Below, piece after piece: positions 747 through 12,169 of a DNA stretch of 55,136 nucleotides. The position numbers and the translations under genes are program-made. The stretch lies in IMG/VR virus record IMGVR_UViG_3300046004_002451, positions 1 to 55,136 of that record; one strand, 5' to 3'. Within the stretch, counting starts at the first letter, position 1. Every line of letters begins with the position of its first letter. The notes beneath the pieces were generated by a model. It ran no database searches. It was not told where the DNA came from and was given only the letters and a program-made list of their open reading frames with translations. The DNA comes from a virus. Taxonomy: Duplodnaviria > Caudoviricetes.

Positions 747-1828
747 TCATTGTAAACCCATACGCGTTTGGCGCGGCCCCAGAAACAATCGTCCGCACAG
801 CGTATCTTGCAGCCTCGCCCACAGGTAACGATGGGACAGGTGTTCTCGACGACTCTAACTATCCGTATGCTACGTTTAGCGGAGCTGCGACTGCACTTGC
901 AGCAGCGTATCCTGGGCAGACCACCACTATTCGTTTATTGACTAACCTCACACAGGATATGGCCGGGAGTGGTGACTGGACTGCTTTGCTTGTGGCTGGC
1001 TTGACACTTCGGTCTAACGCAGCGACACGTTTTCATGTTACAGGGTCTTTGCACTTGGGAGATACTTCAAATATCGCGCTCACACTTCGCAATATTGAGA
1101 TTGATACGCTGGCTAACGTCACTGGAGTTGACCAACCAATTTACATCACAGGTTCTAACAACGCTTATGTGCACGAGCTTTATGTCGCAGGCCCAGATGG
1201 GGTAGGAGGGGGTGCGGCAGGTAGTGACGGAACGTCGGCTTCGGGTAATGGAGGTGCACCTGGCAACGATGACGACAATTACCCCACGGCCGGTGGAACG
1301 GGTGAACATGTTTACACTTCAGGAGCGTCTGGTGAAGCAGGAGCCTCCGGTAGCCCAGCGTGGGATATATATTTATACGGGTCTGGCTTAGTTTCACACA
1401 TCACAGGAACAGGTGGAAACGGCACTCCAGGTGGAGCAGGCGGAAGCGCAGCAAACGGCTACGGTGGTGGCGGGGGCGCAGGTGGTGCCAATTTGACTAA
1501 TAGTGGTAGTGGTGCACCTGGCGGCGATGGCGGAAGTTGCAGTTCTGTTGGAGGTAACGGCGGCACAGGTGGTTCTGGTGGTGATGGTGCCACGATTCGT
1601 AAGGAATCTGGCTGGACTATTTCTAGCTCTTCTCTCACAGGCGGCTCAGGTTCTTCTGGCGGTGGTGCAGGTGGAGGAGAAACTACAAGCGCAGCTGGTT
1701 CCGGGGGTCCAGGTGGTGCGGGTTCGCCTAGCGGTTCCACTGGGGCTAGTGGTGGACTAGACACTAGCGACGGAGTGGCCGGTGGTAGTGGTTCAGGCGG
1801 TGCCAATGGCTCCATCATTTCGATTTAA
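743..1828 (+). CDS. Glycine-rich tail fibre/spike-like protein
   Basis: MIIVNPYAF start; C-terminal half made of GGxGGxGG repeats; structural-gene context. Confidence 0.6.
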   Translation: MIIVNPYAFGAAPETIVRTAYLAASPTGNDGTGVLDDSNYPYATFSGAATALAAAYPGQTTTIRLLTNLTQDMAGSGDWTALLVAGLTLRSNAATRFHVTGSLHLGDTSNIALTLRNIEIDTLANVTGVDQPIYITGSNNAYVHELYVAGPDGVGGGAAGSDGTSASGNGGAPGNDDDNYPTAGGTGEHVYTSGASGEAGASGSPAWDIYLYGSGLVSHITGTGGNGTPGGAGGSAANGYGGGGGAGGANLTNSGSGAPGGDGGSCSSVGGNGGTGGSGGDGATIRKESGWTISSSSLTGGSGSSGGGAGGGETTSAAGSGGPGGAGSPSGSTGASGGLDTSDGVAGGSGSGGANGSIISI

Positions 1829-1832
1829 ACTT

Positions 1833-2306
1833 ATGAAAAAACTCTTACATCTTCCAACACAAACTATCCGTGATTATCCTCGTGGTGATGATTTGCCAGT
1901 CGTCGGACTTTCACAAGCCTACGCAGTTCTTGACGTGCTAACAGAGCCAGTGCCAACCTTTGATCCTGCCATCGAGGTGCTGCATTCATCTGACGTTCTT
2001 GACGCAGAAGCACTCACGTTGACCACAACGTATTCGGTCACAGTCAAACCAGTCATCTACCCTGATGCAGCTAAGTGGCAAGTGCGTGAGTGGCTGATCG
2101 AAAACGGCATCATGCCAACAACAGTGCCCTCCGTTATCGAGCAACTCATCACAAACCCAGTCGAGCAGGCCAAAGCGCTCAATCGCTGGGAGCATGTGGA
2201 GTCCATTCCACGATTCCACCCTCTGGTGGTTTTACTCGGCAATCATCTCGGGTTGACTGAGGACGAAATTAACGCCGCATGGTCCGCCATTGTGGCAAAA
2301 CACTGA
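1833..2306 (+). CDS. Hypothetical protein, possibly tail fibre assembly/chaperone
   Basis: ATG at 1833 just after the fibre stop; ends in HPLV..LG..LGLTEDEINAAW, a pattern I recognise from genes downstream of fibres. Confidence 0.5.
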   Translation: MKKLLHLPTQTIRDYPRGDDLPVVGLSQAYAVLDVLTEPVPTFDPAIEVLHSSDVLDAEALTLTTTYSVTVKPVIYPDAAKWQVREWLIENGIMPTTVPSVIEQLITNPVEQAKALNRWEHVESIPRFHPLVVLLGNHLGLTEDEINAAWSAIVAKH

Positions 2307-2312
2307 ACGACT

Positions 2313-2624
2313 ATGAGCGAAAAAGCCCGGTCCATTATCCTCCTTATCTTTGGTTTTATCGGTGTTGCCGGGACTATTGGCACGCAGGTGCTCAGTGCCG
2401 GGAGAATCGAGGGCACCGTTATGACAATGATCAAAGCTCATGACCAGCGGCTTGAATCGCATGACCGAAAGTTTGAACAACAAGACACCAAGCTGAATGC
2501 CGCCGAGTTGCAAATCGAACGCATCAAAGGCCGCGTCGGCATCGCCGGCCGAAAACCTGACTCCTCCTCCACGGCGTCGAACCCTCCCTGCATAGAAACA
2601 GAAACAGAACAAAAAACACACTAA
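2313..2624 (+). CDS. Single-TM coiled-coil protein (lysis cassette; holin/spanin-like)
   Basis: N-terminal hydrophobic helix IILLIFGFIGVAGTIG followed by a heptad coiled coil; upstream of endolysin. Confidence 0.5.
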   Translation: MSEKARSIILLIFGFIGVAGTIGTQVLSAGRIEGTVMTMIKAHDQRLESHDRKFEQQDTKLNAAELQIERIKGRVGIAGRKPDSSSTASNPPCIETETEQKTH

Positions 2625-2630
2625 GCTACC

Positions 2631-2849
2631 ATGAAAAAGAAACTCCTCCTCTGGCTCTCACTCGGCACCAAAGTCGCATCCATCGGCACCGGACTTGCCT
2701 CCCTGCCTATCCTGTCCCTGCTGCCTGCTCAATACGCAGGATACGCAGCCTTGGCATTCGCTGGTGCCAGCATCCTCAAAGACACCACCAACCGCCTCGG
2801 CGACCTCGCGGACGATGGCGTGCTGAACAACAGCTACAAGGGCAACTGA
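2631..2849 (+). CDS. Putative holin
   Basis: 72 aa, basic N-terminus, two hydrophobic segments, charged C-terminus, upstream of endolysin. Confidence 0.55.
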   Translation: MKKKLLLWLSLGTKVASIGTGLASLPILSLLPAQYAGYAALAFAGASILKDTTNRLGDLADDGVLNNSYKGN

Positions 2850-2876
2850 CCGGTGCTGATTCAAACGAGGATTCTA

Positions 2877-2984
2877 ATGACCATGCTCGCCGAGATCCTT
2901 CCTGACACCGCTCGCGCTCTCGGCATGGCCGCATTCATCGTCTTTCTCACAATAATGATCCCCTTAGCAGCCTTCCGCCCATGA
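2877..2984 (+). CDS. 35-aa single-TM micro-protein (not in ORF track)
   Basis: MTMLAEILPDTARALGMAAFIVFLTIMIPLAAFRP; GAGG at 2867-2870; stop overlaps the endolysin ATG (ATGA). Confidence 0.55.
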   Translation: MTMLAEILPDTARALGMAAFIVFLTIMIPLAAFRP

Positions 2985-3739
2985 AAAGCACCCCAAAAGA
3001 ATTTGTCGCCGAATTTCAGCGCCGTGTCGGTCTCGACGATGACGAAGACCCCGGCGAGGACACGTACAATGCGCTCGACCGAGTGTTGCCAAAAAAGCCA
3101 AAGGCGGAGCAACCTGCCCCGGTAGTCATTCCGGCATCACAGGCTGGCGTGATCAACAAACAATCCCCCGCCGAGAAACTGGCCGCGTGCATCATTGCTG
3201 AAGCCAAACGCTTCTGCGGTTTGCAGGAAGTCCGGCCAAACCAGAACTGGGACAACCCTGCCACCAAAGGGCCGGACACTGCGCTCGTCGCTGAACTCAT
3301 CGCAGGAATGCGCCAGTCACCTTGGGAGCCAGGTTGGGCATACTGCGCGGCATTTGCCGAGTCGATGGCTGCGAAGGGGCTTGAGCAATTCGGTGCGACT
3401 CCTGCGCAGATTGCCAAGTTCCGGTCGGTAATGTCTCCGCACTGCATGACCTCTGCTGCGGCATTTGCGCGCCTCAACCTGTTGTCATCCGTCCCGGTGT
3501 CTGGTGCTATCTGGTTGGCTCAACATGGCAGTTCGGACAACGGCCATGCGGGAATCTGCACGCTGCCGCACGCTCCGAACATGGACACCATCGAGGCCAA
3601 CACGGGCGGCAACGGCAGCGGTAGCCAGCGCGAAGGCGATTGGATCACCCACAAAATCCGGCCCATCGCTGGTCCAGGAGATCTGCATACCCGCGGGTTT
3701 GTGCATCCTGTTGCTATATTGAAAATCTGCGGTCTCTAA
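2981..3739 (+). CDS. Endolysin, CHAP-type cysteine amidase/peptidase with N-terminal peptidoglycan-binding-like motif
   Basis: AYCAAF (catalytic Cys), GHAGI (His) and TIEANT motifs; N-terminal FQRRVGL..D...G..TYNAL resembles PG_binding_1. Confidence 0.8.
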   Translation: MKSTPKEFVAEFQRRVGLDDDEDPGEDTYNALDRVLPKKPKAEQPAPVVIPASQAGVINKQSPAEKLAACIIAEAKRFCGLQEVRPNQNWDNPATKGPDTALVAELIAGMRQSPWEPGWAYCAAFAESMAAKGLEQFGATPAQIAKFRSVMSPHCMTSAAAFARLNLLSSVPVSGAIWLAQHGSSDNGHAGICTLPHAPNMDTIEANTGGNGSGSQREGDWITHKIRPIAGPGDLHTRGFVHPVAILKICGL

Positions 3740-4699: not shown

Positions 4700-4731
4700 A
4701 AGCCGCTGCCTTACCGGGCAGCGGCTTTTTT
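4700..4731 (+). terminator. Rho-independent terminator overlapping the integrase stop codon
   Basis: AAGCCGCTGCC-ttaccg-GGCAGCGGCTT followed by a T-run, between convergent genes. Confidence 0.8.
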
Positions 4732-5943
4732 CTTTGGGCTGAACGCCTTGTTGAGAGCCTTCGACTTCGTCGCGTCTTCCAGGTGCGTGTAGATCAGGTT
4801 TGTTGCGTCATTTGAGTGACCTGTGATCATGCGCCGGACCTCCGGCGTGACGCCGGCATTGGCGAGCAGGCTGTTGCAGGTGTGTCGGAGGGAGTGGAAC
4901 GTCAGAGAATTGAAGGAGAGCCCCCTACCCTGCCCTTCGACCTTCCGGCCTTTGATGCCGGCGGCCTTGAGGATCTCCGTGAACTGCGTGCTCAGGCCTC
5001 GGTTGCGGGCGGCGTGCACCCCGGCCAATGAGGGGGCGAGGTAAAGTGAATCCGTCGGTTCCTGCCACAACTCCGTCAGATGGCTCGCCAGCGGTCCCAC
5101 GATGGGGATACGCATTTTCTTCTTCGTCTTCCCCTGACTCATCTCCCATATCCATGTGCCGGGCTGCACGACGATTTGCGTGCGTAGGGCGTTCGCGCAG
5201 TCCGTGAGGCGCTGAGAGGTGCAAAGCCCAAGCAGCGTCACCGTAAGCCAGTCACGGCGCTCCGGCTTCGCGCGCAGATGGCTCAGAAGTCGCTCCACCT
5301 CTGCCGGCGTGTAAGGGTCGCGGGTGTTGGAGTTGTTGAGTTCTCGGGAGATGAGATTCACCGGGTTGCGGGTCGCATAGCCTTCGTCACGAGCCCTCTC
5401 GAAGATTGTCGAGATTGTCGAGGCCGCGATATTCATGGTCGTCGGCTTCAGTCCCTCCTCAATGCCGCTCAGATACCAGTTTTGCAGCATCTCACCGGTG
5501 AAGGACCCAAGCGCCAGCTCCACATCTTTTCCCAGCCACTCGGTGAAGTTATTGACGTAGCTCGTGTAGGCCTTCAGGGAGGAAGCGCTGAGCGTCTTTG
5601 GCACCCGCTTGGCAGCCGCCTTGAGCCATGCCTCTGAGTACGACTTCCAGCTTTTTGAGTCCACCACTTCCCTGTGCCCTGCGAGCCGTAGAATGTCATT
5701 GATGACCTCCACCACGAAGTCGCGTGAGATCCTGGCCGCACCGCTGACACCGCCCGCCGCCAGCGATACCCGCTCAAACTCACGAGCGATCTCCAGAGCC
5801 TTGGCCTCGTCTGTGCAGCGTGTCGATTTCATGGCCTGCTTCCACCGCTGCGCCCTTGCATCCCACACCTGAAACACCGCCGAATAGTACAGCGATTTCT
5901 TGCGACGGTAAACCGCTGCGGGTCGGGCGAGGGGCGGGGTCAT
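4711..5943 (-). CDS. int: Phage tyrosine integrase
   Basis: Catalytic R (SQRLTD), K (GKTKK), HSLRH, GHS and Y (IYTH); N-terminal arm-binding-like and SAM-like regions; start taken at MTPPLARP (5943). Confidence 0.92.
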   Translation of the reverse strand: MTPPLARPAAVYRRKKSLYYSAVFQVWDARAQRWKQAMKSTRCTDEAKALEIAREFERVSLAAGGVSGAARISRDFVVEVINDILRLAGHREVVDSKSWKSYSEAWLKAAAKRVPKTLSASSLKAYTSYVNNFTEWLGKDVELALGSFTGEMLQNWYLSGIEEGLKPTTMNIAASTISTIFERARDEGYATRNPVNLISRELNNSNTRDPYTPAEVERLLSHLRAKPERRDWLTVTLLGLCTSQRLTDCANALRTQIVVQPGTWIWEMSQGKTKKKMRIPIVGPLASHLTELWQEPTDSLYLAPSLAGVHAARNRGLSTQFTEILKAAGIKGRKVEGQGRGLSFNSLTFHSLRHTCNSLLANAGVTPEVRRMITGHSNDATNLIYTHLEDATKSKALNKAFSPKKKAAAR

Positions 5944-6238
5944 GGATGTAATAAAATAGCGGCGAGTGATAATGCCCGTGCTAAAGAATGTCAACAAAGA
6001 GAAAACAGCGTAAAACAAGAAATAAAGATGTAAAAGGCTGGAAATAAGCGCCTTACCAACACACTCCAAAACGCTGCAAAGATGTCAAAAACCCCTTAGA
6101 CTCATATAGGAGATGTCTTTTTAAAAGGCTGTTGCCTGGGTAAATGGGGCGTAAATGGCATGGGTGATAATGTAGGTGCTAAATTTGTGACACCCGTTCG
6201 AGTGTTGCAAATATTACATTAGCTCGCATGGTAGCCGG
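5944..6238. other. Candidate attP / divergent promoter region
   Basis: AT-rich non-coding gap next to int with short repeats (AGATGT at 6026, 6080, 6111; TAAAAGGCTG at 6031, 6122; GTGATAATG at 5966, 6164; GTAAATGG at 6140, 6151). Confidence 0.5.
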
Positions 6239-7152: not shown

Positions 7153-7205
7153 CTCGGTGCGTGTTGGTTTGCCCCGAACGGGTGCATGATATGTGGTCAA
7201 TTCGT

Positions 7206-7448
7206 TCAGTGATCTGTACTGTTCAGTATCTTTTTCGCGTAGTCCTCGATATGCCGAGCGGACAGACCCGCATAGGCAATGTATTCGAGAGCATCACGGT
7301 ATTTGTCCCGCTCCTCTGCAAGCACTGCATAACAACTATCTCCGTGCTTCGCTTTTGCGATTTCTGACCACAACTCATCACGTTGTCGGCGCAGATACTC
7401 ACATTCAGATCCTGAACAATTGGATGCAGCACAATTCGCTTCACTCAT
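7206..7448 (-). CDS. Cassette-like hypothetical protein (80 aa)
   Basis: Starts inside the 7412-7468 hairpin; ends ...ILNSTDH across a degenerate core. Confidence 0.7.
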   Translation of the reverse strand: MSEANCAASNCSGSECEYLRRQRDELWSEIAKAKHGDSCYAVLAEERDKYRDALEYIAYAGLSARHIEDYAKKILNSTDH

Positions 7449-7468
7449 GGCTGATCCTTTCCGTTCAG
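7412..7468 (+). repeat. attC-like site (57 bp)
   Basis: CTGAAC-aatt-GGAT[G]CAGC ... GCTGATCC-tttcc-GTTCAG; ATGA stop/start overlap at 7445-7448 inside. Confidence 0.85.
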
Positions 7469-7672
7469 CGATCCATCATCGTGCGATGGTGCCTCGCTCA
7501 GCATGTCTATCATGAGGTTCGTGAGAGTCTCCCACCCAAGCCGCCCCATTCGCAGCGTCAGCAGGGTGCCGTCTTCCAGCGTGTGCTTGATCTGGTATTC
7601 CTGCTCACCGGGCACGGGAGAGCGGCCATTAGCTTCAGGGTGATCGTAGGTTGTGTATGTGAGTTCCTTCAT
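7445..7672 (-). CDS. Cassette-like hypothetical protein (75 aa, MKELTYTT...)
   Basis: ATG at 7672; ends SLNGKDQP inside the attC-like site. Confidence 0.7.
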   Translation of the reverse strand: MKELTYTTYDHPEANGRSPVPGEQEYQIKHTLEDGTLLTLRMGRLGWETLTNLMIDMLSEAPSHDDGSLNGKDQP

Positions 7673-7690
7673 AGTCTTGGGTGGTTCGGG

Positions 7691-7781
7691 CTGAACCATG
7701 GCACTGCTGCCAACGGCTCGTAAATATCTGTCATGCTTGCGGCGGCTTCTCGCTCGCCGTCGGCAGAGTTGGTTCGTTCTG
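7691..7781 (+). repeat. attC-like site (91 bp)
   Basis: CTGAAC-catggc-ACT[G]CTGCCaACGGC ... GCCGTcGGCAGAGT-tggttc-GTTCTG. Confidence 0.85.
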
Positions 7782-8126
7782 TGAATTGCGCTCGCGCTCC
7801 ATTTCGGCATCGAGGTCGCTGAAATCAGCGTTGGTTTGCCACACTTCAACGGCGCGACCATTTTCCCATTTTACACGGTAAACTCCCCATTCGTAGCCAT
7901 CGTCATCAAGGTTGCCGTGAGTGCAATCGTGCAACCATTTCATCCGCGCTTCGTATCGTTCTAATTCCACGATGCGCTTGCCAGCATCGAGTAGGAGTTC
8001 GCCGAGCGACTTTCCGACAGACACAGAACCAGCGGATGCAGGCAATGAGCCACGCCTCGGTTTGGTGCATCCAGTCCGGTGGGTCTGCCAAGATTCGCCG
8101 CACACATCACAGTGATAGTAGCTCAT
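7731..8126 (-). CDS. Cassette-like hypothetical protein (131 aa) with N-terminal CxxC
   Basis: Begins and ends within attC-like hairpins; ATGA overlaps at both ends. Confidence 0.7.
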   Translation of the reverse strand: MSYYHCDVCGESWQTHRTGCTKPRRGSLPASAGSVSVGKSLGELLLDAGKRIVELERYEARMKWLHDCTHGNLDDDGYEWGVYRVKWENGRAVEVWQTNADFSDLDAEMERERNSQNEPTLPTASEKPPQA

Positions 8127-8146
8127 GCCTGATCCTTTCCGTTCGG
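8024..8146 (+). repeat. attC-like site (123 bp)
   Basis: CAGAAC-cagc-GGAT[G]CAGGCA[A]TGAGC ... GCTCATGCCTGATCC-tttcc-GTTCGG; two extrahelical bases; shares the 16-mer CTGATCCTTTCCGTTC with the 7412 site. Confidence 0.9.
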
Positions 8147-8437
8147 CGGAAGTTGCAGGCTCTCGAATACCTCGTCCTTGGCATATCCAATCTGACGCTC
8201 CCGCCTGCCGTGCAGCGAGCGTTCAGCAATGTATTTCACGACTCCGGTTTTCCAGCGTAGCAGTTCAATGATCTTCCAACCCGCCAGCATGTTGATCGAG
8301 GTGATGACGTTGTTCACAAAGTCGAGGTGACTTTTCTCTGCTGCGACACGTTGCGCGTATTCCCACTCCGCCGAACAATTCTGCTGCTGGACAACAGAGC
8401 GGGGCTTTGTGGTATCATCGAGTTGATTCTGATTCAT
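8123..8437 (-). CDS. Cassette-like hypothetical protein (104 aa)
   Basis: N-terminal ...QQQNCSA half-site signature; C-terminal PPNGKDQA. Confidence 0.7.
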   Translation of the reverse strand: MNQNQLDDTTKPRSVVQQQNCSAEWEYAQRVAAEKSHLDFVNNVITSINMLAGWKIIELLRWKTGVVKYIAERSLHGRRERQIGYAKDEVFESLQLPPNGKDQA

Positions 8438-8450
8438 GATTTTGACTCAT

Positions 8451-8675
8451 TCATAGTGGATAGCGATGCGAGCATCGTGGGCAATCAAAGGCTCCGTAGT
8501 CACCCCAGCCTTTCCAGAAAGATTCCCACCACGTCGCCTCCGTGCGGTATGTGGTTTCCCATTCGCCGCAGCTTGGGCAGTGCCACGGGAAATAATCTCC
8601 ACGCTGCGACAAATCGCGGCAAGCTGAACCATGTGCTGTTCCCAATTCGGAGGGCGGTGATGTCGTAGGTGTCAT
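8451..8675 (-). CDS. Small double-CxxC zinc-ribbon protein (74 aa)
   Basis: WHCPSCG...FDCPRCS; AAAGGAG RBS upstream, inside the hairpin loop. Confidence 0.75.
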   Translation of the reverse strand: MTPTTSPPSELGTAHGSACRDLSQRGDYFPWHCPSCGEWETTYRTEATWWESFWKGWGDYGAFDCPRCSHRYPL

Positions 8676-8719
8676 GGTTGCTCCTTTCCGCCCTCCTCAT
8701 GGGAGAGCGAAGCGCTCTG
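8624..8719 (+). repeat. attC-like site (96 bp) with mutated R' core
   Basis: CTGAAC-catgt-GCT[G]tTCCCA[A]TtcGGAGGGCGG ... CCGCCCTCCtcATGGGAgAGC-gaagc-GCTCTG (GTT changed to GCT). Confidence 0.8.
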
Positions 8720-8721
8720 GA

Positions 8722-8928
8722 CTACGCTTCATCTGTTTCCGGCGCGGGTTTGAAGTCACCATCCGCGTCACAGTGAACGGGCGGCCATCCGTTCCGCTTG
8801 ATGTCCAAGTGCCGCAGCAGCCTTTTGAGCGGGTGGCAGATGATTTGCCGCGTGGCTTCGCAGACGGTGTAGAGCATGAAAAATGAGATGAAGGGATGCT
8901 CCATCATGAAGGGTAAGAGGTCTTTCAT
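8722..8928 (-). CDS. Small membrane-associated hypothetical protein (68 aa, MKDLLPFM...)
   Basis: Hydrophobic N-terminal half; C-terminal GWPPVHCDADGDFK motif. Confidence 0.7.
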   Translation of the reverse strand: MKDLLPFMMEHPFISFFMLYTVCEATRQIICHPLKRLLRHLDIKRNGWPPVHCDADGDFKPAPETDEA

Positions 8929-8938
8929 TTTGTCGTGT

Positions 8939-9511
8939 TCATGGTAGTTTTGCGCTCGCCGTCGCCTGATCCGGGGCGTTCGCCAGCCGCAGCAGCACGT
9001 CCGCATGGCAAGCCGTCCCATTCTTGCACCAGCACGCTAGATTCTTGCCACACAGAGTTTTCAGATTGTCCAGCATCCACTGCTTTCGCTCGGGTATTCC
9101 AGCGGTAACGCCTTCGACCGTGAGCCATGTTTGGAATGCGCCGACGGCGAGGATTTGCGGCCGCTCCGGTGTGACCTTGAACGGGTTACCCCACTTCGAA
9201 GGCCGCGAGACCACGACTGTATTCGGTGGCAGTTTCGCGCCTGCCTTCCTGGAGAGTTGCACACGATGCGGCATAGCTTGAGCAGGTAGTGGTAGAGGTA
9301 TAAAGTCATCAGCAGGTAGGCCAGGCTGATATTGTTTTGGCGGATTCATCAGCCTTCGGCGCGCCCGGTCGCACATTGGAAACCATGCCACTCGCGGGTA
9401 GTCGAAGAGCCATTGAGCAGCATGGTTCCTTTCGGCGCAGCCTTCGGACACACACAGCACCACTGACCCAGCGTCAGGAGTCAACCGCTCTGGAGTATCG
9501 TTTGTATTCAT
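8939..9511 (-). CDS. DUF4326 domain protein
   Basis: VSRPSKWGNPF ... LCGKNLACWC...CHADVLLRLAN; ATG at 9511 overlaps the upstream stop. Confidence 0.85.
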   Translation of the reverse strand: MNTNDTPERLTPDAGSVVLCVSEGCAERNHAAQWLFDYPRVAWFPMCDRARRRLMNPPKQYQPGLPADDFIPLPLPAQAMPHRVQLSRKAGAKLPPNTVVVSRPSKWGNPFKVTPERPQILAVGAFQTWLTVEGVTAGIPERKQWMLDNLKTLCGKNLACWCKNGTACHADVLLRLANAPDQATASAKLP

Positions 9512-9552
9512 TGGCGGCATTGGTTCGCTGGTGAGTCAGCCTTTACGTTCGG
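9463..9552 (+). repeat. attC-like site (90 bp), degenerate
   Basis: CTGACC...GGAGTCA[A]CCGC ... GCTGGTGAGTCAGCC-tttac-GTTCGG; R'' AAC changed to ACC; ATGA overlap at 9508-9511 inside. Confidence 0.6.
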
Positions 9553-9807
9553 CTTACACAGTGAGATCACCGCCAGTTGCTCCATCTTCACGGAGTTCTG
9601 CACGCCATCAAAAACAGCGTCCCGAAGGAGGCAGGCTTTTGCCACGGAGAGCGCCGTGCGATTGGCCGGAGTGTCTTCAACTTGCACCACCATTCGCAGG
9701 AGGCATATCGGCAGTGGCACGGAAGCCGACCCCAGCACTGGTGCCAATCGCCGGGGCTTTTGGCCTTTGGTCGCTTTCTTCTTCAATGGTGTCTTTTTGG
9801 TCTTCAT
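9508..9807 (-). CDS. Cassette-like hypothetical protein (99 aa)
   Basis: RRLAPVLGSA N-terminal and KPNVKADSP C-terminal hairpin-encoded peptides. Confidence 0.7.
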   Translation of the reverse strand: MKTKKTPLKKKATKGQKPRRLAPVLGSASVPLPICLLRMVVQVEDTPANRTALSVAKACLLRDAVFDGVQNSVKMEQLAVISLCKPNVKADSPANQCRQ

Positions 9808-9854
9808 GAATCAGTCGTGGTTAGTCCGGCGGTCGGCAAAGTTGTTTCGTTCGC
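9726..9854 (+). repeat. attC-like site (129 bp)
   Basis: CCGACC-ccagc-ACT[G]gTGCCaAtCGCCGG ... CCGGCGgTcGGCAaAGT-tgtttc-GTTCGC; ATGA overlap at 9804-9807 inside. Confidence 0.75.
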
Positions 9855-10115
9855 CCTTCCAGTTGCCATGCGACTCGCCTCCTGAATTGCCACCATCAAG
9901 TCAGCAGCGATGCAATGAGCTTCTTCGATGGATATTCCATGATCCACGGTGCGGAGCTTCCAATCCGCGCTGGTTGTGTCCCAAGACACGGTTCGCAGGT
10001 AAATTTTCCCGTATTTGTTCACAAATGCCCCGTTCTTGGGCGAACAAGACGCAGCACGCGCCGCGCCGCACTCCTCGGTTTTCTCAGGCTTCAATTCTTC
10101 GTTTTCGTTTGGCAT
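9804..10115 (-). CDS. Cassette-like hypothetical protein (103 aa)
   Basis: ARAASCSP and RANETTLPT signatures. Confidence 0.7.
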   Translation of the reverse strand: MPNENEELKPEKTEECGAARAASCSPKNGAFVNKYGKIYLRTVSWDTTSADWKLRTVDHGISIEEAHCIAADLMVAIQEASRMATGRANETTLPTAGLTTTDS

Positions 10116-10144
10116 AGATTTCAGACTTGGGGCATTCGATTCTT

Positions 10145-10615
10145 CTACTCATGGTCGTTCGGCTTACGGCATGGCATCCACTGGCCTATGGGGTCATGTA
10201 TCGCCCACATTCGGAGCGTTCGACCTCCCCATGACTGATACTCCACATCGTAGGCGGCAAGGTGTGGTGGCTCGCTAGGGTATCCCTCCGCGAAGTCCAC
10301 AATTCGGACCATGCGCCATTCCTGATTGGGATATTTACGCCACCAGTAGAATCCAGCCATATCAGGCAAAGCCGAACTACGTGATGCTTGTATGGAGCAA
10401 TCTTGGCATTGGAAAAGGCGTTCCTTCTTGGAACGTGGATCAAGGGGGTGCGGACTGCAGTTCATCGTGCATTCCTTTGTTTTCGGATCAAACTTTTCCA
10501 ACTCGGCCGGGTCTGATTTTGGCCAGCTCTTCAAGCTAGAATGTTGCGTGAAAGGGTTGCAGACTCCACACAAGTCCGCGGGCCGCCCGTGCTTACAGAT
10601 TAAGTTCATGGCCAT
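10145..10615 (-). CDS. Cys-rich hypothetical protein, two-part fusion
   Basis: MAMNLICKHG..C..C N-terminal part; LPDMAGFYWWR domain after the SRSSA half-site; ends KPNDHE. Confidence 0.7.
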   Translation of the reverse strand: MAMNLICKHGRPADLCGVCNPFTQHSSLKSWPKSDPAELEKFDPKTKECTMNCSPHPLDPRSKKERLFQCQDCSIQASRSSALPDMAGFYWWRKYPNQEWRMVRIVDFAEGYPSEPPHLAAYDVEYQSWGGRTLRMWAIHDPIGQWMPCRKPNDHE

Positions 10616-10628
10616 AGTTTCTTTGAGC

Positions 10629-11255
10629 TTATTTGGCAAAGTGATTGCGCCATTCTCCTGCGCTCGCGCGCTGTTGTTGTAATGTGGCCAGTTGGGCGCC
10701 GTTGCGCAGCGCGCTGCAGTGCTTTCCAACTGTGACATCATAATAAGGGGGTGCCCCCCGGTGATAGGTGTTGGTGCGGAGATGCAAGCAGCCTACAGCG
10801 AAGGCGTGCAGTAAGTCCTCATTGGCATGTCCTGGGTCAGTGTAGAGTCGGGCAATACCGGCTCGGAACGCGGGTATCTGCGGGTCACTCGGCTTGGGTG
10901 GTGCCAGTTCAGTGAGGTAAAACCGTGGATATGGGAAGTCGATGGCCGCGAGCGTCTCGGCATCGCTACGTATGAAGCGGTCGATAAAGTCCGTCACCGG
11001 CGCCCATCCCACCCATTGCCGGCTCCACGGTTGGTCATCGACCCACACGAGGTAAGAGGCGGATACCGCCTGCATCTGCTTGCCGGCGTGCTCGCCCACC
11101 GGCATGAAGCTGGAGGGCATCAGCACTCGGTCATGGCCGGGCCGGAAATATGGCACTCCATGCTGCTTGTGGAGTTTGGTGGGGTCTTGTGGCGCTGTAC
11201 GCCAGAAGCGCTCTTTGCGCGCGGCTTCATTGGAGGGTGCCCAGTTTGTGCTCAT
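10629..11255 (-). CDS. DUF3820-like plus DUF4031-like fusion protein
   Basis: MPVGEHAGKQMQAVSASYLVW (MPFGKHKG-type motif) and LHAFA....PYYDVT..K...ALRNGA. Confidence 0.6.
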   Translation of the reverse strand: MSTNWAPSNEAARKERFWRTAPQDPTKLHKQHGVPYFRPGHDRVLMPSSFMPVGEHAGKQMQAVSASYLVWVDDQPWSRQWVGWAPVTDFIDRFIRSDAETLAAIDFPYPRFYLTELAPPKPSDPQIPAFRAGIARLYTDPGHANEDLLHAFAVGCLHLRTNTYHRGAPPYYDVTVGKHCSALRNGAQLATLQQQRASAGEWRNHFAK

Positions 11256-11275: not shown

Positions 11276-12169
11276 CTAGACCAGCGGCAGCGCGGTGGCT
11301 TGGGTAAATCCTGCGGCACAAGGGTGCCCCCCACCGCCGGCGCTCATATCTGCGGCAACGTTATGGACCGGTGTGCCGTTTTTCCGCGAGCGTAGAGAGT
11401 AAACAAATTCACCGGTGCCGGGTTTCACGAACCACGAGGCGCTAAATGGTGCCTGCGGGTAGGTTTCCAACAGTAAGTTACACGCATCAGAAATAAGTTC
11501 ACTCGCCAGTCCATTTACCGCTGGGATCTTGCCCTGAGGGAATTGAAGCCAATGGCAATTTGCTGCGGCGGCCGCGATGATGGTAGCGTCCACGGACCTC
11601 AACCGTTGCCCAATGGCAATCACTGCGGCCAGTTCCTCATCGGTGCTAAGTATTAGCCGGCGCCAATCATCAAAATTGCGCGGTGTGACGCGCATGAGTG
11701 CGGCGTGCAGATTGAGTGAGTCGGCGCTGTCAGCGTGCGTTGGCTCTTGCCACGCAATGCCCCTGTCACGGTGAGAGATGAGGGTAACGGCGAGTGGCAC
11801 CGAGTTATCGAAATAGTGTTTCCACGCCAATTCAGCGCCAGAAGCAGTTTTGTCATAGACGCTTTCAAAAATGGGCACATTCGAGGTCACGTCATATTTG
11901 TGGGTTACCTCTGCCCCACCTGAATGGTGGTCGATGACGGTGACATACACTGCTCCCTCGAACTCATCACGCACAGTCAGCAATGTTGAAAGTGGGGGGG
12001 TATAGTCGAGGTAGGTGAGGGTATCACCGGCGGCGAGTCCTGGCGGTCGCTGAATAACATCGCCGTATTGTATCGGGTAGAATGCGGCGGGCTCGGTGAG
12101 AGCCTGCCTGGAGATAGTAGCGGCGGCAAAGCCGTCAGCGCAGTTAGCGTGGTAAAGTACGTGGTGCAT
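11276..12169 (-). CDS. DHH/DHHA1 phosphoesterase (nanoRNase NrnB-like)
   Basis: YHANCADG, YLDY, IDHH, SGAELAW, YSLRS and GGGGHPCAAGF motifs. Confidence 0.9.
   Translation of the reverse strand: MHHVLYHANCADGFAAATISRQALTEPAAFYPIQYGDVIQRPPGLAAGDTLTYLDYTPPLSTLLTVRDEFEGAVYVTVIDHHSGGAEVTHKYDVTSNVPIFESVYDKTASGAELAWKHYFDNSVPLAVTLISHRDRGIAWQEPTHADSADSLNLHAALMRVTPRNFDDWRRLILSTDEELAAVIAIGQRLRSVDATIIAAAAANCHWLQFPQGKIPAVNGLASELISDACNLLLETYPQAPFSASWFVKPGTGEFVYSLRSRKNGTPVHNVAADMSAGGGGHPCAAGFTQATALPLV

Follow-up and report, generated by a model that had tools for sequence, protein, structure and literature searches.

The minus-strand gene array and its junctions

The window, i.e. the whole stretch of 55,136 nt of viral DNA that was analysed, carries on its minus strand an array of ten small genes and two mini-ORFs, delimited from the ORF list and the sequence, with a phage-type tyrosine integrase downstream on the same strand. 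The phage is temperate, and the array belongs to its early region. These features are as follows:

7206-10741, minus strand: array of ten small genes and two mini-ORFs
10145-10741, minus strand: array gene 1
9804-10115, minus strand: array gene 2
9508-9807, minus strand: array gene 3
8939-9520, minus strand: array gene 4, matching DUF4326 (profile search, E = 4e-22)
8942 to 8925, minus strand: mini-ORF of 5 codons, bridging junction J4 to the following gene
8722-8928, minus strand: array gene 5
8451-8675, minus strand: array gene 6
8123-8437, minus strand: array gene 7
7731-8126, minus strand: array gene 8
7734 to 7669, minus strand: leader ORF of 21 codons, encoded by the 3' arm of junction J6 and ATGA-coupled to both flanking genes
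7445-7672, minus strand: array gene 9 (alternative start at 7699)
7206-7448, minus strand: array gene 10
4711-6069, minus strand: phage-type tyrosine integrase (PF00589, E = 3.8e-16)

Most joints between array genes in the window ORF list are ATGA stop/start overlaps. Gene 8 has 42 other homologues, among which the C-terminal domain is conserved and the tails vary, and its own Cys-rich N-terminus is encoded in the loop of junction J5. A search for related loci returned no relatives for 11276-12169, 7731-8126 or 8123-8437, so that swapped-tail tests with DNA context are limited to the DUF4326 gene.

The initial annotation stated that eight array genes read the AAC of a recombination core in frame as Asn, and the sequence and ORF translations bear this out for all eight. 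The core is (C/T/A)GAAC(G/A), with GAACG making up seven of the eight cases, and the Asn sits 3-16 codons ahead of the stop. Specifically, the gene ends read KPNDHE, RANETTLP..., KPNVKADS..., LANAPDQA..., PPNGKDQA, SQNEPTLP..., SLNGKDQP and ILNSTDH, and the Asn codons are found on the minus strand at 10157-10159, 9849-9851, 9547-9549, 8978-8980, 8141-8143, 7776-7778, 7463-7465 and 7221-7223. The remaining two of the ten genes (8722-8928 and 8451-8675) have no Asn-type core at their ends. Promoters of the ECF-sigma type (GGAAC...GTT) were also considered for these motifs, and are excluded by the spacing of 45-115 nt.

Eight junctions were delimited around these cores, using our own covariance model (R1) rather than that of IntegronFinder for attC calls:

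J1, 10157-10163, minus strand: R' core GCCGAAC with no supported second arm; fold z +1.44
J2, 9736-9858, minus strand: degenerate hairpin, paired manually; DNA fold z -0.30
J3, 9547-9553, minus strand: R' core GCCGAAC; z -0.43
J4, 8867-8991, minus strand: half site; R1 28.4 bits, the 3' arm being mismatched along its length
J5, 8015-8154, minus strand: intact attC-like hairpin with a long variable loop; fold z -1.61
J6, 7682-7789, minus strand: intact attC-like hairpin, the best copy in the window; R1 61.6 bits, E = 1.5e-16
J7, 7403-7476, minus strand: intact attC-like hairpin; R1 21.9 bits, E = 3e-4 with filters off
J8, 7172-7230, minus strand: last junction; z 0.07

Three of the eight junctions (J5, J6, and J7) are intact hairpins, the other five being degenerate or half sites. 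On the sense strand, the 5' half of J7 reads GCTGAAC, a 5-nt spacer, GGATCAGC and then a loop with the ATGA stop/start, and its 3' half reads GCTG(C)ATCC, a 4-nt spacer and GTTCAGG. Its R and L boxes are paired, with the C bulged, under both RNA and DNA folding parameters (DNA z -0.81). In the J5 fold, GGATCAGGC pairs with GCCTG(C)ATCC, and J5 differs from J7 by a compensatory change at one base pair; under default filters R1 scores J5 at 24.6 bits, and at 12.2 bits when the filters are off. J6 folds as DNA at -17.8 kcal/mol (z -2.3). Among the other junctions, J4 has a 5' arm and conserved loop motif near-identical to the family consensus and has lost its 3' arm; J2, which R1 missed, keeps the L-box stem and has GTC instead of GTT as its second core; and at J3, the downstream GGGTCAG (read as AGSV) pairs as inner stem and not as a core. 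At J8, a CTGAAC core (7221-7226) is followed by another, TGAACG (7203-7208), which shares bases with the last gene's stop; GTTCGGG comes next, at 7179, and the fold has no L-box pairing. The z-scores of J5-J7 are modest (-0.8 to -2.3), and across all junctions DNA-fold z ranges from -2.3 to +1.44, with four of eight no better than shuffles, so fold energy by itself is weak evidence. The model R1 found no more elements in the rest of the window, and Rfam gave no matches over the whole window at gathering score.

An attC-like hairpin family in viral and bacterial arrays

The window cores belong to a family of hairpins of ~85 nt with integron attC geometry. The viral sample was seeded by an exact 18-mer of J4 (8955-8972) that recurs in 25 viral stretches, 21 of which contain the rest of the element; because it was seeded by one exact 18-mer, the sample represents a single attC subfamily. 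R1 yields 55 non-overlapping matches in ~20 viral contigs, always on one strand per contig. An exact 16-mer from J5/J7 was also tried, and its 33 single matches in viral contigs are, by a rough estimate, about the number expected by chance.

The family has inverse cores that pair as an R box (RYYYAAC ... GTTRRRY), mostly in the form RYYGAAC/GTTCRRY with some TAAC/GTTA variants, and the AAC/GTT pairs are formed in 49-51 of 53 rows. The outer R-box positions are poorly paired (23-39 of 53 rows). The central spacers are unpaired and 5 nt long (5-6 nt in attC sites), and the L box has 4 bp. The arm opposite AAC has a bulged C in 50 of 52 rows and, 5 bp further in, a wobble-paired or bulged T, compared with attC extrahelical bases ~6 bp apart with a distal T; the published bottom-strand layout of attC agrees with this placement, although the usual first extrahelical base is G rather than the C of the viral family (PMC5027507). 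The distance from AAC to GTT is 49-128 nt, mostly 80-84, within the attC length range (57-141 bp) and with a variable terminal structure. Inner pairs are compensatory (AT 43 / TA 9; GC 38 / CG 11), as counted in an alignment fitted to the model. The initial assignment of R' to the GTT read on the plus strand fits the extrahelical bases, the orientation of intI and the gene orientation in bacterial arrays (PMC5027507).

Element arms are nearly identical between contigs, and the conserved 5' arm is open in all three frames. It is read in two frames, one in the window and another in L040, with compensating indels that give APDQATASAKLP and ARGSGDGEHKTL; this use of the same arm in two frames indicates that conservation of the element acts at the nucleic-acid level. 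Of ten sense ORFs from the viral arrays, four have Pfam domains, vs none of ten antisense ORFs, and the array cargo includes DNA methyltransferases. Viral status is less direct for some relatives: of five array-bearing records, only one has a match to the gpA terminase family, and a PHROGs search of L077 (8616-10631) gave no match, so for several relatives it rests on the classification of the collection.

The window has no IntI (best TIGR02249 scores of 17.8 and 13.1 bits vs a cut-off of 265). The window integrase is not an integron integrase and is unrelated to IntI; it shares only 29% identity over 101 residues with the IntI of L077. By contrast, IntI lies beside the array, as in a complete integron, in 4 of 20 related viral records (341-355 bits vs the curated cut-off of 265), one of them a 39-kb record with direct terminal repeats that is estimated to be 100% complete. 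In all three records inspected, intI is preceded on its own strand by an element 0.5-1.3 kb away. IntI was not found in the other 16 of 20; many of these are fragments, but four are 93-100% complete. In the window, J7, J6, J5 and the half site J4 cluster within 1.6 kb on the minus strand, as called by our own model, and with no IntI this makes the window a CALIN.

The same hairpin family forms ordinary cassette arrays in Verrucomicrobia genome records. In these records, 33 of 36 spacers have their longest ORF on the opposite strand, i.e. in the canonical layout with the ORF on the top strand and attC past its stop, vs 11 of 35 spacers in viral arrays; neither the window nor the viral arrays have this layout. 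Seven genome loci have both an element and an IntI homologue; in two of the seven, these are on opposite strands. Based on these comparisons, the junctions are probably attC sites of the family used by Verrucomicrobia integrons, and the window is probably a CALIN with frame-locked, bottom-strand genes.

Codon phase at the crossover triplet

The frame bias that the initial annotation proposed to look for in other phage arrays is present: AAC is in frame at 36 of 41 scorable viral sites (phases 36/2/3), and at the remaining five the gene's own stop overlaps the core. Gene frames were set by an open-frame-length rule and not by a gene caller, and the count leaves out 9 of 50 sites that are ambiguous (frames 2/4/3). 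By contrast, Verrucomicrobia arrays of the same attC family have AAC phases of 15/11/13. At 35 of the 36 in-frame sites the stop lies inside the element, and at 18 of 36 there is a 4-nt stop/start overlap (ATGA/TTGA).

The second core behaves differently. The same xGT/GGG TCx frame was claimed for eight genes, and the peptides (NCSG, AGSV, NCSA, HGSA, AGSV, LGSA, SCSP, and RSSA) are indeed present in the window ORFs; as a rule of the family, the claim fails, with GTT-core phases of 16/12/5 across viral elements. Two of the eight second cores are GGGTC rather than GTT, and only those at 7417 and 8029 are partnered in a folded, model-supported hairpin. A ninth and genuine GTT partner, absent from the original list (7696-7694, in the hairpin 7789-7682), is in a different phase. 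A constrained phase on the GTT side had also been suggested by the compensating indels between the window and L040, and was dropped after this count.

Homology also breaks at the AAC, with three such breakpoints found. For example, L080 and L083 share a block of 1,537 nt (99% identical) that begins exactly at AAC, with unrelated genes upstream. Sequences diverge immediately 5' of the AAC, and many unrelated upstream genes abut it.

A phase set by chance or codon usage is extremely improbable. GAAC is common, with 221 copies on the window minus strand, xxG AAC is a favoured phase in G+C-rich coding DNA, and the background is already in phase 0 at 44-52%; yet the 36 of 41 sites depart from it at P = 6e-9 (44%) to P = 1.4e-6 (52%), which rejects chance at these sample sizes, and all five exceptions are stop overlaps. 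In addition, with 52 GAACG on the entire minus strand, ~0.5 would be expected in ten gene ends of ~50 nt, vs the seven observed. There is very little likelihood, too, that the 5'-arm tail is a functional C-terminal peptide tag with selection on the tag fixing the frame. Many viral cassette proteins do have near-identical tails (e.g. N-V-S/P-D-Q-A-T-A-S), as a tag would predict; but L040 reads the same DNA in another frame, type II sites yield unrelated tails such as NEPTLPTA, tail length after the Asn varies from 1 to 24 residues (median 12), and five genes, whose stop is at the core, lack a tail altogether.

Two further explanations were weighed. It seems unlikely that the hairpins work only in mRNA, through strict translational coupling, with the attC likeness inherited but idle. 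Here, the hairpin would hide the downstream ribosome-binding site and start until an upstream ribosome melts the stem, which agrees with the stop, a Shine-Dalgarno-like AAGGA/GAGGA and the ATG all lying within the stem-loop, with the overlaps at half of the in-frame sites, with the lack of IntI in the window and with RNA parameters that fold the hairpins equally well. However, the uniform AAC phase is left unexplained, because the conserved arm is open in every frame, as are the breaks in homology exactly at AAC and the IntI genes adjoining arrays in some records; translational coupling is more likely to act in addition to recombination than instead of it. Ordinary homologous recombination between the ~30-nt arms, in which in-register exchange would shuffle genes and keep the phase, as at the boundary or linker sequences of mosaic phages, is likewise improbable. 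The near-identity of the arms favours it, and L075 and L083 (1885-1991) have in common the 3' half of an element and its downstream flank but not the loop's 5' half, which shows that elements undergo homologous exchange internally as well. This process cannot, however, set many unrelated upstream genes precisely at AAC with divergence right 5' of it; the poor outer R-box pairing is what would be expected if core halves came from different units, and bacterial arrays with equally conserved arms have no phase rule.

Translated sites compared with known systems

Relative to ordinary cassettes, the genes of this phage lineage are inverted, being coded on the attC bottom strand, so that the mRNA traverses every site. 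The upstream gene reads the R' core AAC as Asn and then the spacer and inner arm as its short tail of 1-24 residues. Its stop falls in the variable loop and often forms part of an ATGA that doubles as the next start; the next gene often starts within the hairpin. IntI cuts the triplet as AA|C. The mobile unit thus comprises the C, the remaining hairpin (prior tail, stop, ribosome-binding site, and start) and the gene body up to AA, and new junctions would be in frame, terminated and coupled because units share the AA|C phase or bring their own stop (TAA|C, TGAA|C). The phase counts and controls support, and extend to other arrays, the original suggestion that each unit carries the tail and stop of the previous gene and its own start in a uniform AA|C phase. 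We infer that IntI, from a relative or the host, moves units in phages and that the phase persists because selection favours exchangeable units; for the window phage, exchange itself has to be inferred, because most of its junctions (five of eight) are degenerate or half sites.

The usual view of integrons is that a single promoter beside intI drives the cassettes, with attC sites as non-coding spacers between genes. In the viral arrays the layout differs, with transcription towards the integrase, translation through the sites and expression by coupling rather than by distance from Pc; the direction of the genes, towards the integrase, argues against Pc-type expression. T4-type phages and lambdoid phages also have short conserved elements at gene borders (mobile promoter-stem-loop cassettes, PeSLs, and boundary sequences, respectively) in hyperplastic regions, thought to aid modular exchange; these are intergenic and thought to work by homologous recombination, unlike the viral elements, which have attC geometry, a link to IntI and a break at a single triplet.

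Phage-borne attC sites and CALINs with DNA methyltransferase cargo have been described (Qi et al. 2023, PMC9892861). The viral sites resemble these and other attC arrays in their hairpins, AAC/GTT inverse cores, unpaired spacers, extrahelical bases and variable loop, as well as in their single orientation, spacing of 0.3-1.2 kb and IntI that is present in some relatives and absent in the window (PMC9892861). Unlike known sites, those of the window type have genes on the bottom strand that run towards the integrase, are translated on one or both arms and hold the crossover triplet in a fixed codon phase; section 3.4 of that account makes no mention of coding overlap or phase. A partial parallel is ORF-11/ORF-18 of the class 1 attI1 site, a short ORF across the crossover whose in-phase stop is supplied by the core of the inserted cassette and which couples translation to the cassette (PMC8876359). 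That case, as described there, is one attI leader on the top strand with its stop in GTTRRRY, whereas every viral cassette gene crosses its attC on the bottom strand, with Asn at AAC by convention.

A codon phase held constant at the crossover would amount to a reading-frame convention, the first natural one described for site-specific recombination, and phages could trade small early genes as ready-to-express modules. We are evenly divided over a broader proposal: the arrays may represent an inside-out integron in a Verrucomicrobia phage lineage, in which bottom-strand cassettes, translated sites and the AA|C phase form an in-frame assembly standard, with IntI encoded by the phage in some members and supplied by the host in others. 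Under this reading, IntI could reshuffle an early operon without breaking termination or coupling, the accessory genes being moved would include DNA methyltransferases and probably also anti-defence genes, and loss of the loop stop would directly yield attC-linked fusion proteins. The contrast between viral and bacterial phases within one attC family makes this idea directly testable.

The viral arrays are also a natural counterpart to engineered coding attC sites, in silico designs that have been assayed with IntI1 (Nivina et al. 2020, PMC7439510). Both hold attC structure and peptide in the same DNA, in the engineered case as linkers joining protein parts; the viral sites are natural and usually have a stop/start pair instead of a continuous linker. 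One exception is L083 (2448-3710), where a single ORF reads through the whole element behind an MT-A70 domain, as a natural counterpart of the attC-encoded linker.

Gene content and junctions of the array

The window record (55,136 bases, estimated to be ~90% complete) carries head, replication and integrase genes, and ten small minus-strand ORFs (10741 to 7206) are found between the replication genes and the integrase, most of them linked by ATGA overlaps.

Features of the window
Encoded in the window: portal, large terminase, head protease and major head protein
Encoded in the window: replication initiator and SSB
4711-6069: one tyrosine integrase
11276-12169, minus strand: DHH-family phosphoesterase (PHROG 4771, E 1e-43), adjoining the SSB gene, upstream of the array
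7734-7669, minus strand: leader ORF of 21 codons, holding the GTT partner 7696-7694 and ATGA-coupled on both sides
8925-8942, minus strand: mini-ORF of 5 codons, with ATGA overlap to the upstream stop and downstream start
8991-8867, minus strand: junction retaining the 5' arm alone
9858-9736, minus strand: junction whose second core reads GTC

Between the early and the head genes, one uninterrupted frame spans 7,282 codons (20995-42843, minus strand), which is very large for a 55-kb phage.

Eight of the ten array ORFs end in a residue followed by Asn, a tail and a stop, just as the initial annotation had it. In all eight the Asn codon is an AAC within (C/T/A)GAAC(G/A); seven of these cores read GAACG, a word with 52 occurrences in total on the minus strand of the window. 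Three junctions (7476-7403, 8154-8015, and 7789-7682) share one fold on the gene strand. Its 5' side consists of a core of 6-7 nt with AAC at its 3' end, five unpaired spacer nucleotides, and a 4-bp box continued by further stem; a variable loop follows, which holds the stop of the upstream gene and often also the start of the downstream one; the 3' side consists of the return stem, with its bulged C, a spacer of 4-5 nt, and a core that opens with GTT. Only these 3 of the 8 junctions are intact; besides the two incomplete ones listed, three further junctions have the core, with no support for a second arm.

The initial annotation also noted that eight genes read the other core in one frame, as a GS/CS-type dipeptide. 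These eight dipeptides are indeed present in the window, but the phase at the GTT core follows no rule (16/12/5 among 33 decided of 47 sites), and the GTT partner of the best hairpin (7696-7694), which is genuine, is in another phase than the eight listed dipeptides. The 21- and 5-codon mini-ORFs sit in hairpin loops or arms and resemble ribosome-relaying leader peptides. In genes 8123-8437 and 8451-8675, the sequences coding for the N-termini (minus strand, near 8376 and 8629, respectively) resemble orphan 3' arms (…CAGCAGCAGAATTGTTCGGCG and …CAGCACATGGTTCAGC) whose 5' partner is absent, suggesting that losses or insertions have taken place within sites.

An attC-like family, its integrases and its orientation

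The 18-mer at 8955-8972, part of a 5' arm, was found again in 25 viral stretches, 21 of which contain the whole ~85-nt element (18 distinct copies), and element similarity ends sharply just 5' of AAC and just 3' of GTTC. A covariance model built from the 18 distinct copies identifies 55 non-overlapping elements in ~20 viral contigs, arranged in same-strand arrays with a spacing of ~0.3-1.2 kb, and also recovers the window's own sites. In the rows aligned to the model, compensatory changes are seen at inner pairs, 50 of 52 rows retain the bulged C, AAC/GTT pairs are kept in ~50 of 53, and outer core positions pair poorly (23-39 of 53); these counts lean towards the structure because the row alignment was fitted to the model.

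PMC5027507 describes the attC bottom strand as having AAC in R', unpaired spacers of 5-6 nt, and a total length of 57-141 bp; the arm facing AAC bears the extrahelical bases, of which the distal is a T located ~6 bp from the proximal, usually a G. The layout of our element agrees with this description, and the sole difference is a C at the proximal position, where G is usual.

Integron integrases (IntI) are found in 4 of 20 related viral records, with scores of 341-355 bits against a curated NCBIfam cut-off of 265, and one of these records has direct terminal repeats and an estimated completeness of 100%. All three viral records looked at have an element on the intI strand, 0.5-1.3 kb 5' of the gene. 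IntI-bearing relatives also have elements on both strands (L106, 571-1368 on the minus and 8263-8368 on the plus strand; L107 likewise), with one element immediately 5' of intI and another array, oppositely oriented, 7-8 kb off. IntI is absent from the window, whose integrase scores 13-18 bits (cut-off 265) and has only the generic C-terminal catalytic region in common with the IntI of a related contig (L077). Given this absence and the low number of intact junctions, the data suggest that the window array is either decaying or dependent on IntI in trans.

Frequent matches to the 8955-8972 18-mer also come from genome records titled Verrucomicrobiaceae, Prosthecobacter, Brevifollis, Luteolibacter, and relatives, in many cases several per contig, and the covariance model finds 99 non-overlapping elements in the bacterial genome records that bear it. 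Seven genome loci combine an element with an IntI homologue: five have the element upstream of intI and on its strand, and in the other two it occupies the opposite strand.

Three independent observations identify the model strand, i.e. the gene strand in the window, as the attC bottom strand: the arm with the bulged bases is the one facing AAC, the intI coding strand is the model strand, and 33 of 36 spacers in bacterial arrays have their longest inter-element ORF off the model strand, as ordinary cassettes do. For viral arrays, 24 of 35 spacers have their longest ORF on the model strand, and Pfam domains are detected in 4 of the 10 longest sense ORFs (gpA terminase, MT-A70, N6_N4 methylase, and Dam) vs 0 of the 10 longest antisense ORFs; the DUF4326 gene of the window is likewise on the sense strand. 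The phage cassette genes are therefore reversed with respect to attC, and read towards the integrase.

Codon phase at the AAC core

Phase was analyzed for the 50 of 55 viral elements that have AAC where the model places it. The upstream gene was assigned to the frame with the longest open stretch, provided that this was 150 nt or more and no less than 1.3 times as long as its runner-up, which decided 41 elements. We find that AAC is an Asn codon in 36 of these 41, so the frame bias anticipated by the initial annotation extends across viral arrays. Among the exceptions, two genes end in TAA, with the AA being that of the core, and three end in TGA, with the A being the first core A. The nine undecided sites have frames 2/4/3.

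Two controls were used. All remaining (G/T)AAC words of these loci, treated with the same rule, are in phase 0 in 44% of cases, and (G/T)AACG words in 52%; against these backgrounds, 36 of 41 has P = 6e-9 and P = 1.4e-6, respectively. Bacterial arrays of the element family have phases of 15/11/13 (39 decided of 85 sites).

The 36 in-phase sites give tails with a median length of 12 residues; a 4-nt overlap between stop and next start (ATGA or TTGA) is present in 18, and the stop falls inside the element in all except one, where the gene reads through. The conserved arm is open in all three frames, and the window and a related contig (L040) use the same arm in different frames, APDQATASAKLP and ARGSGDGEHKTL, because of compensating single-base indels. 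It follows that the nucleic acid and the AAC phase are conserved, not the peptide.

Breakpoints at AAC and a possible cassette mechanism

Homology between contigs also breaks at the core. For example, two related contigs (L080 and L083) have in common a 1,537-nt block of 99% identity whose first base, in each contig, is precisely the leading A of AAC; their upstream genes are unrelated, one ending in TAA at the core and the other continuing ...SENVSDQATASK. Similarity had been expected to end at the Asn, and this is what we observe for the window DUF4326 gene, which is ~85% identical to its L034 homologue up to GGC(G/T)AAC and unrelated thereafter; a sequence match to L090 stops one base past AAC. 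In the window, the DUF4326 gene is followed by the 5' arm of an element; in L040 and L090 that element precedes the gene instead. Homologues of the 7731-8126 product, compared as proteins only, have a common domain of ~50 residues, followed in several by (A/Q)N and a short unrelated tail. Homologous exchange within arms also occurs.

The array is best read as a phage CALIN (an attC cluster lacking IntI) of a reversed, translated type. Each unit would carry the previous gene's tail and stop, a ribosome-binding site and a start, followed by its own gene as far as AA; a common phase, or a stop left of the cut, would then make every junction productive. We infer that recombination occurs in phages; the enzyme serving this one would be an IntI provided by its host or a relative. 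Selection for exchangeability presumably maintains the phase, and RNA-level coupling is probably an added function.

Parts of this have precedents in the literature, including integrons and CALINs in phages (PMC9892861), synthetic attC sites within coding sequence (PMC7439510), and the attI1 leader ORF-11, where the inserted cassette supplies an in-phase stop (PMC8876359). In a non-exhaustive search of the literature on integrons, attC sites (translational coupling and cassette orientation included), CALINs, phages, and Verrucomicrobia, we found no description of bottom-strand-coded attC arrays or of crossover codon phase.

On L083, a 421-codon ORF (2448-3710, minus strand) with an MT-A70 methyltransferase domain at residues 22-189 runs through a complete attC-like element (3130-3025) into 223 more residues, a naturally occurring fusion whose reading frame spans a recombination site. 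One array of the same contig (1508-5391, minus strand) has three DNA methyltransferase genes (Dam, MT-A70, and N6_N4) as adjacent units. In another related contig (L086), the TGA that closes a gpA-type large terminase gene (1284-3002, minus strand) overlaps an attC-like core, and the sites are thus not limited to accessory-gene regions.
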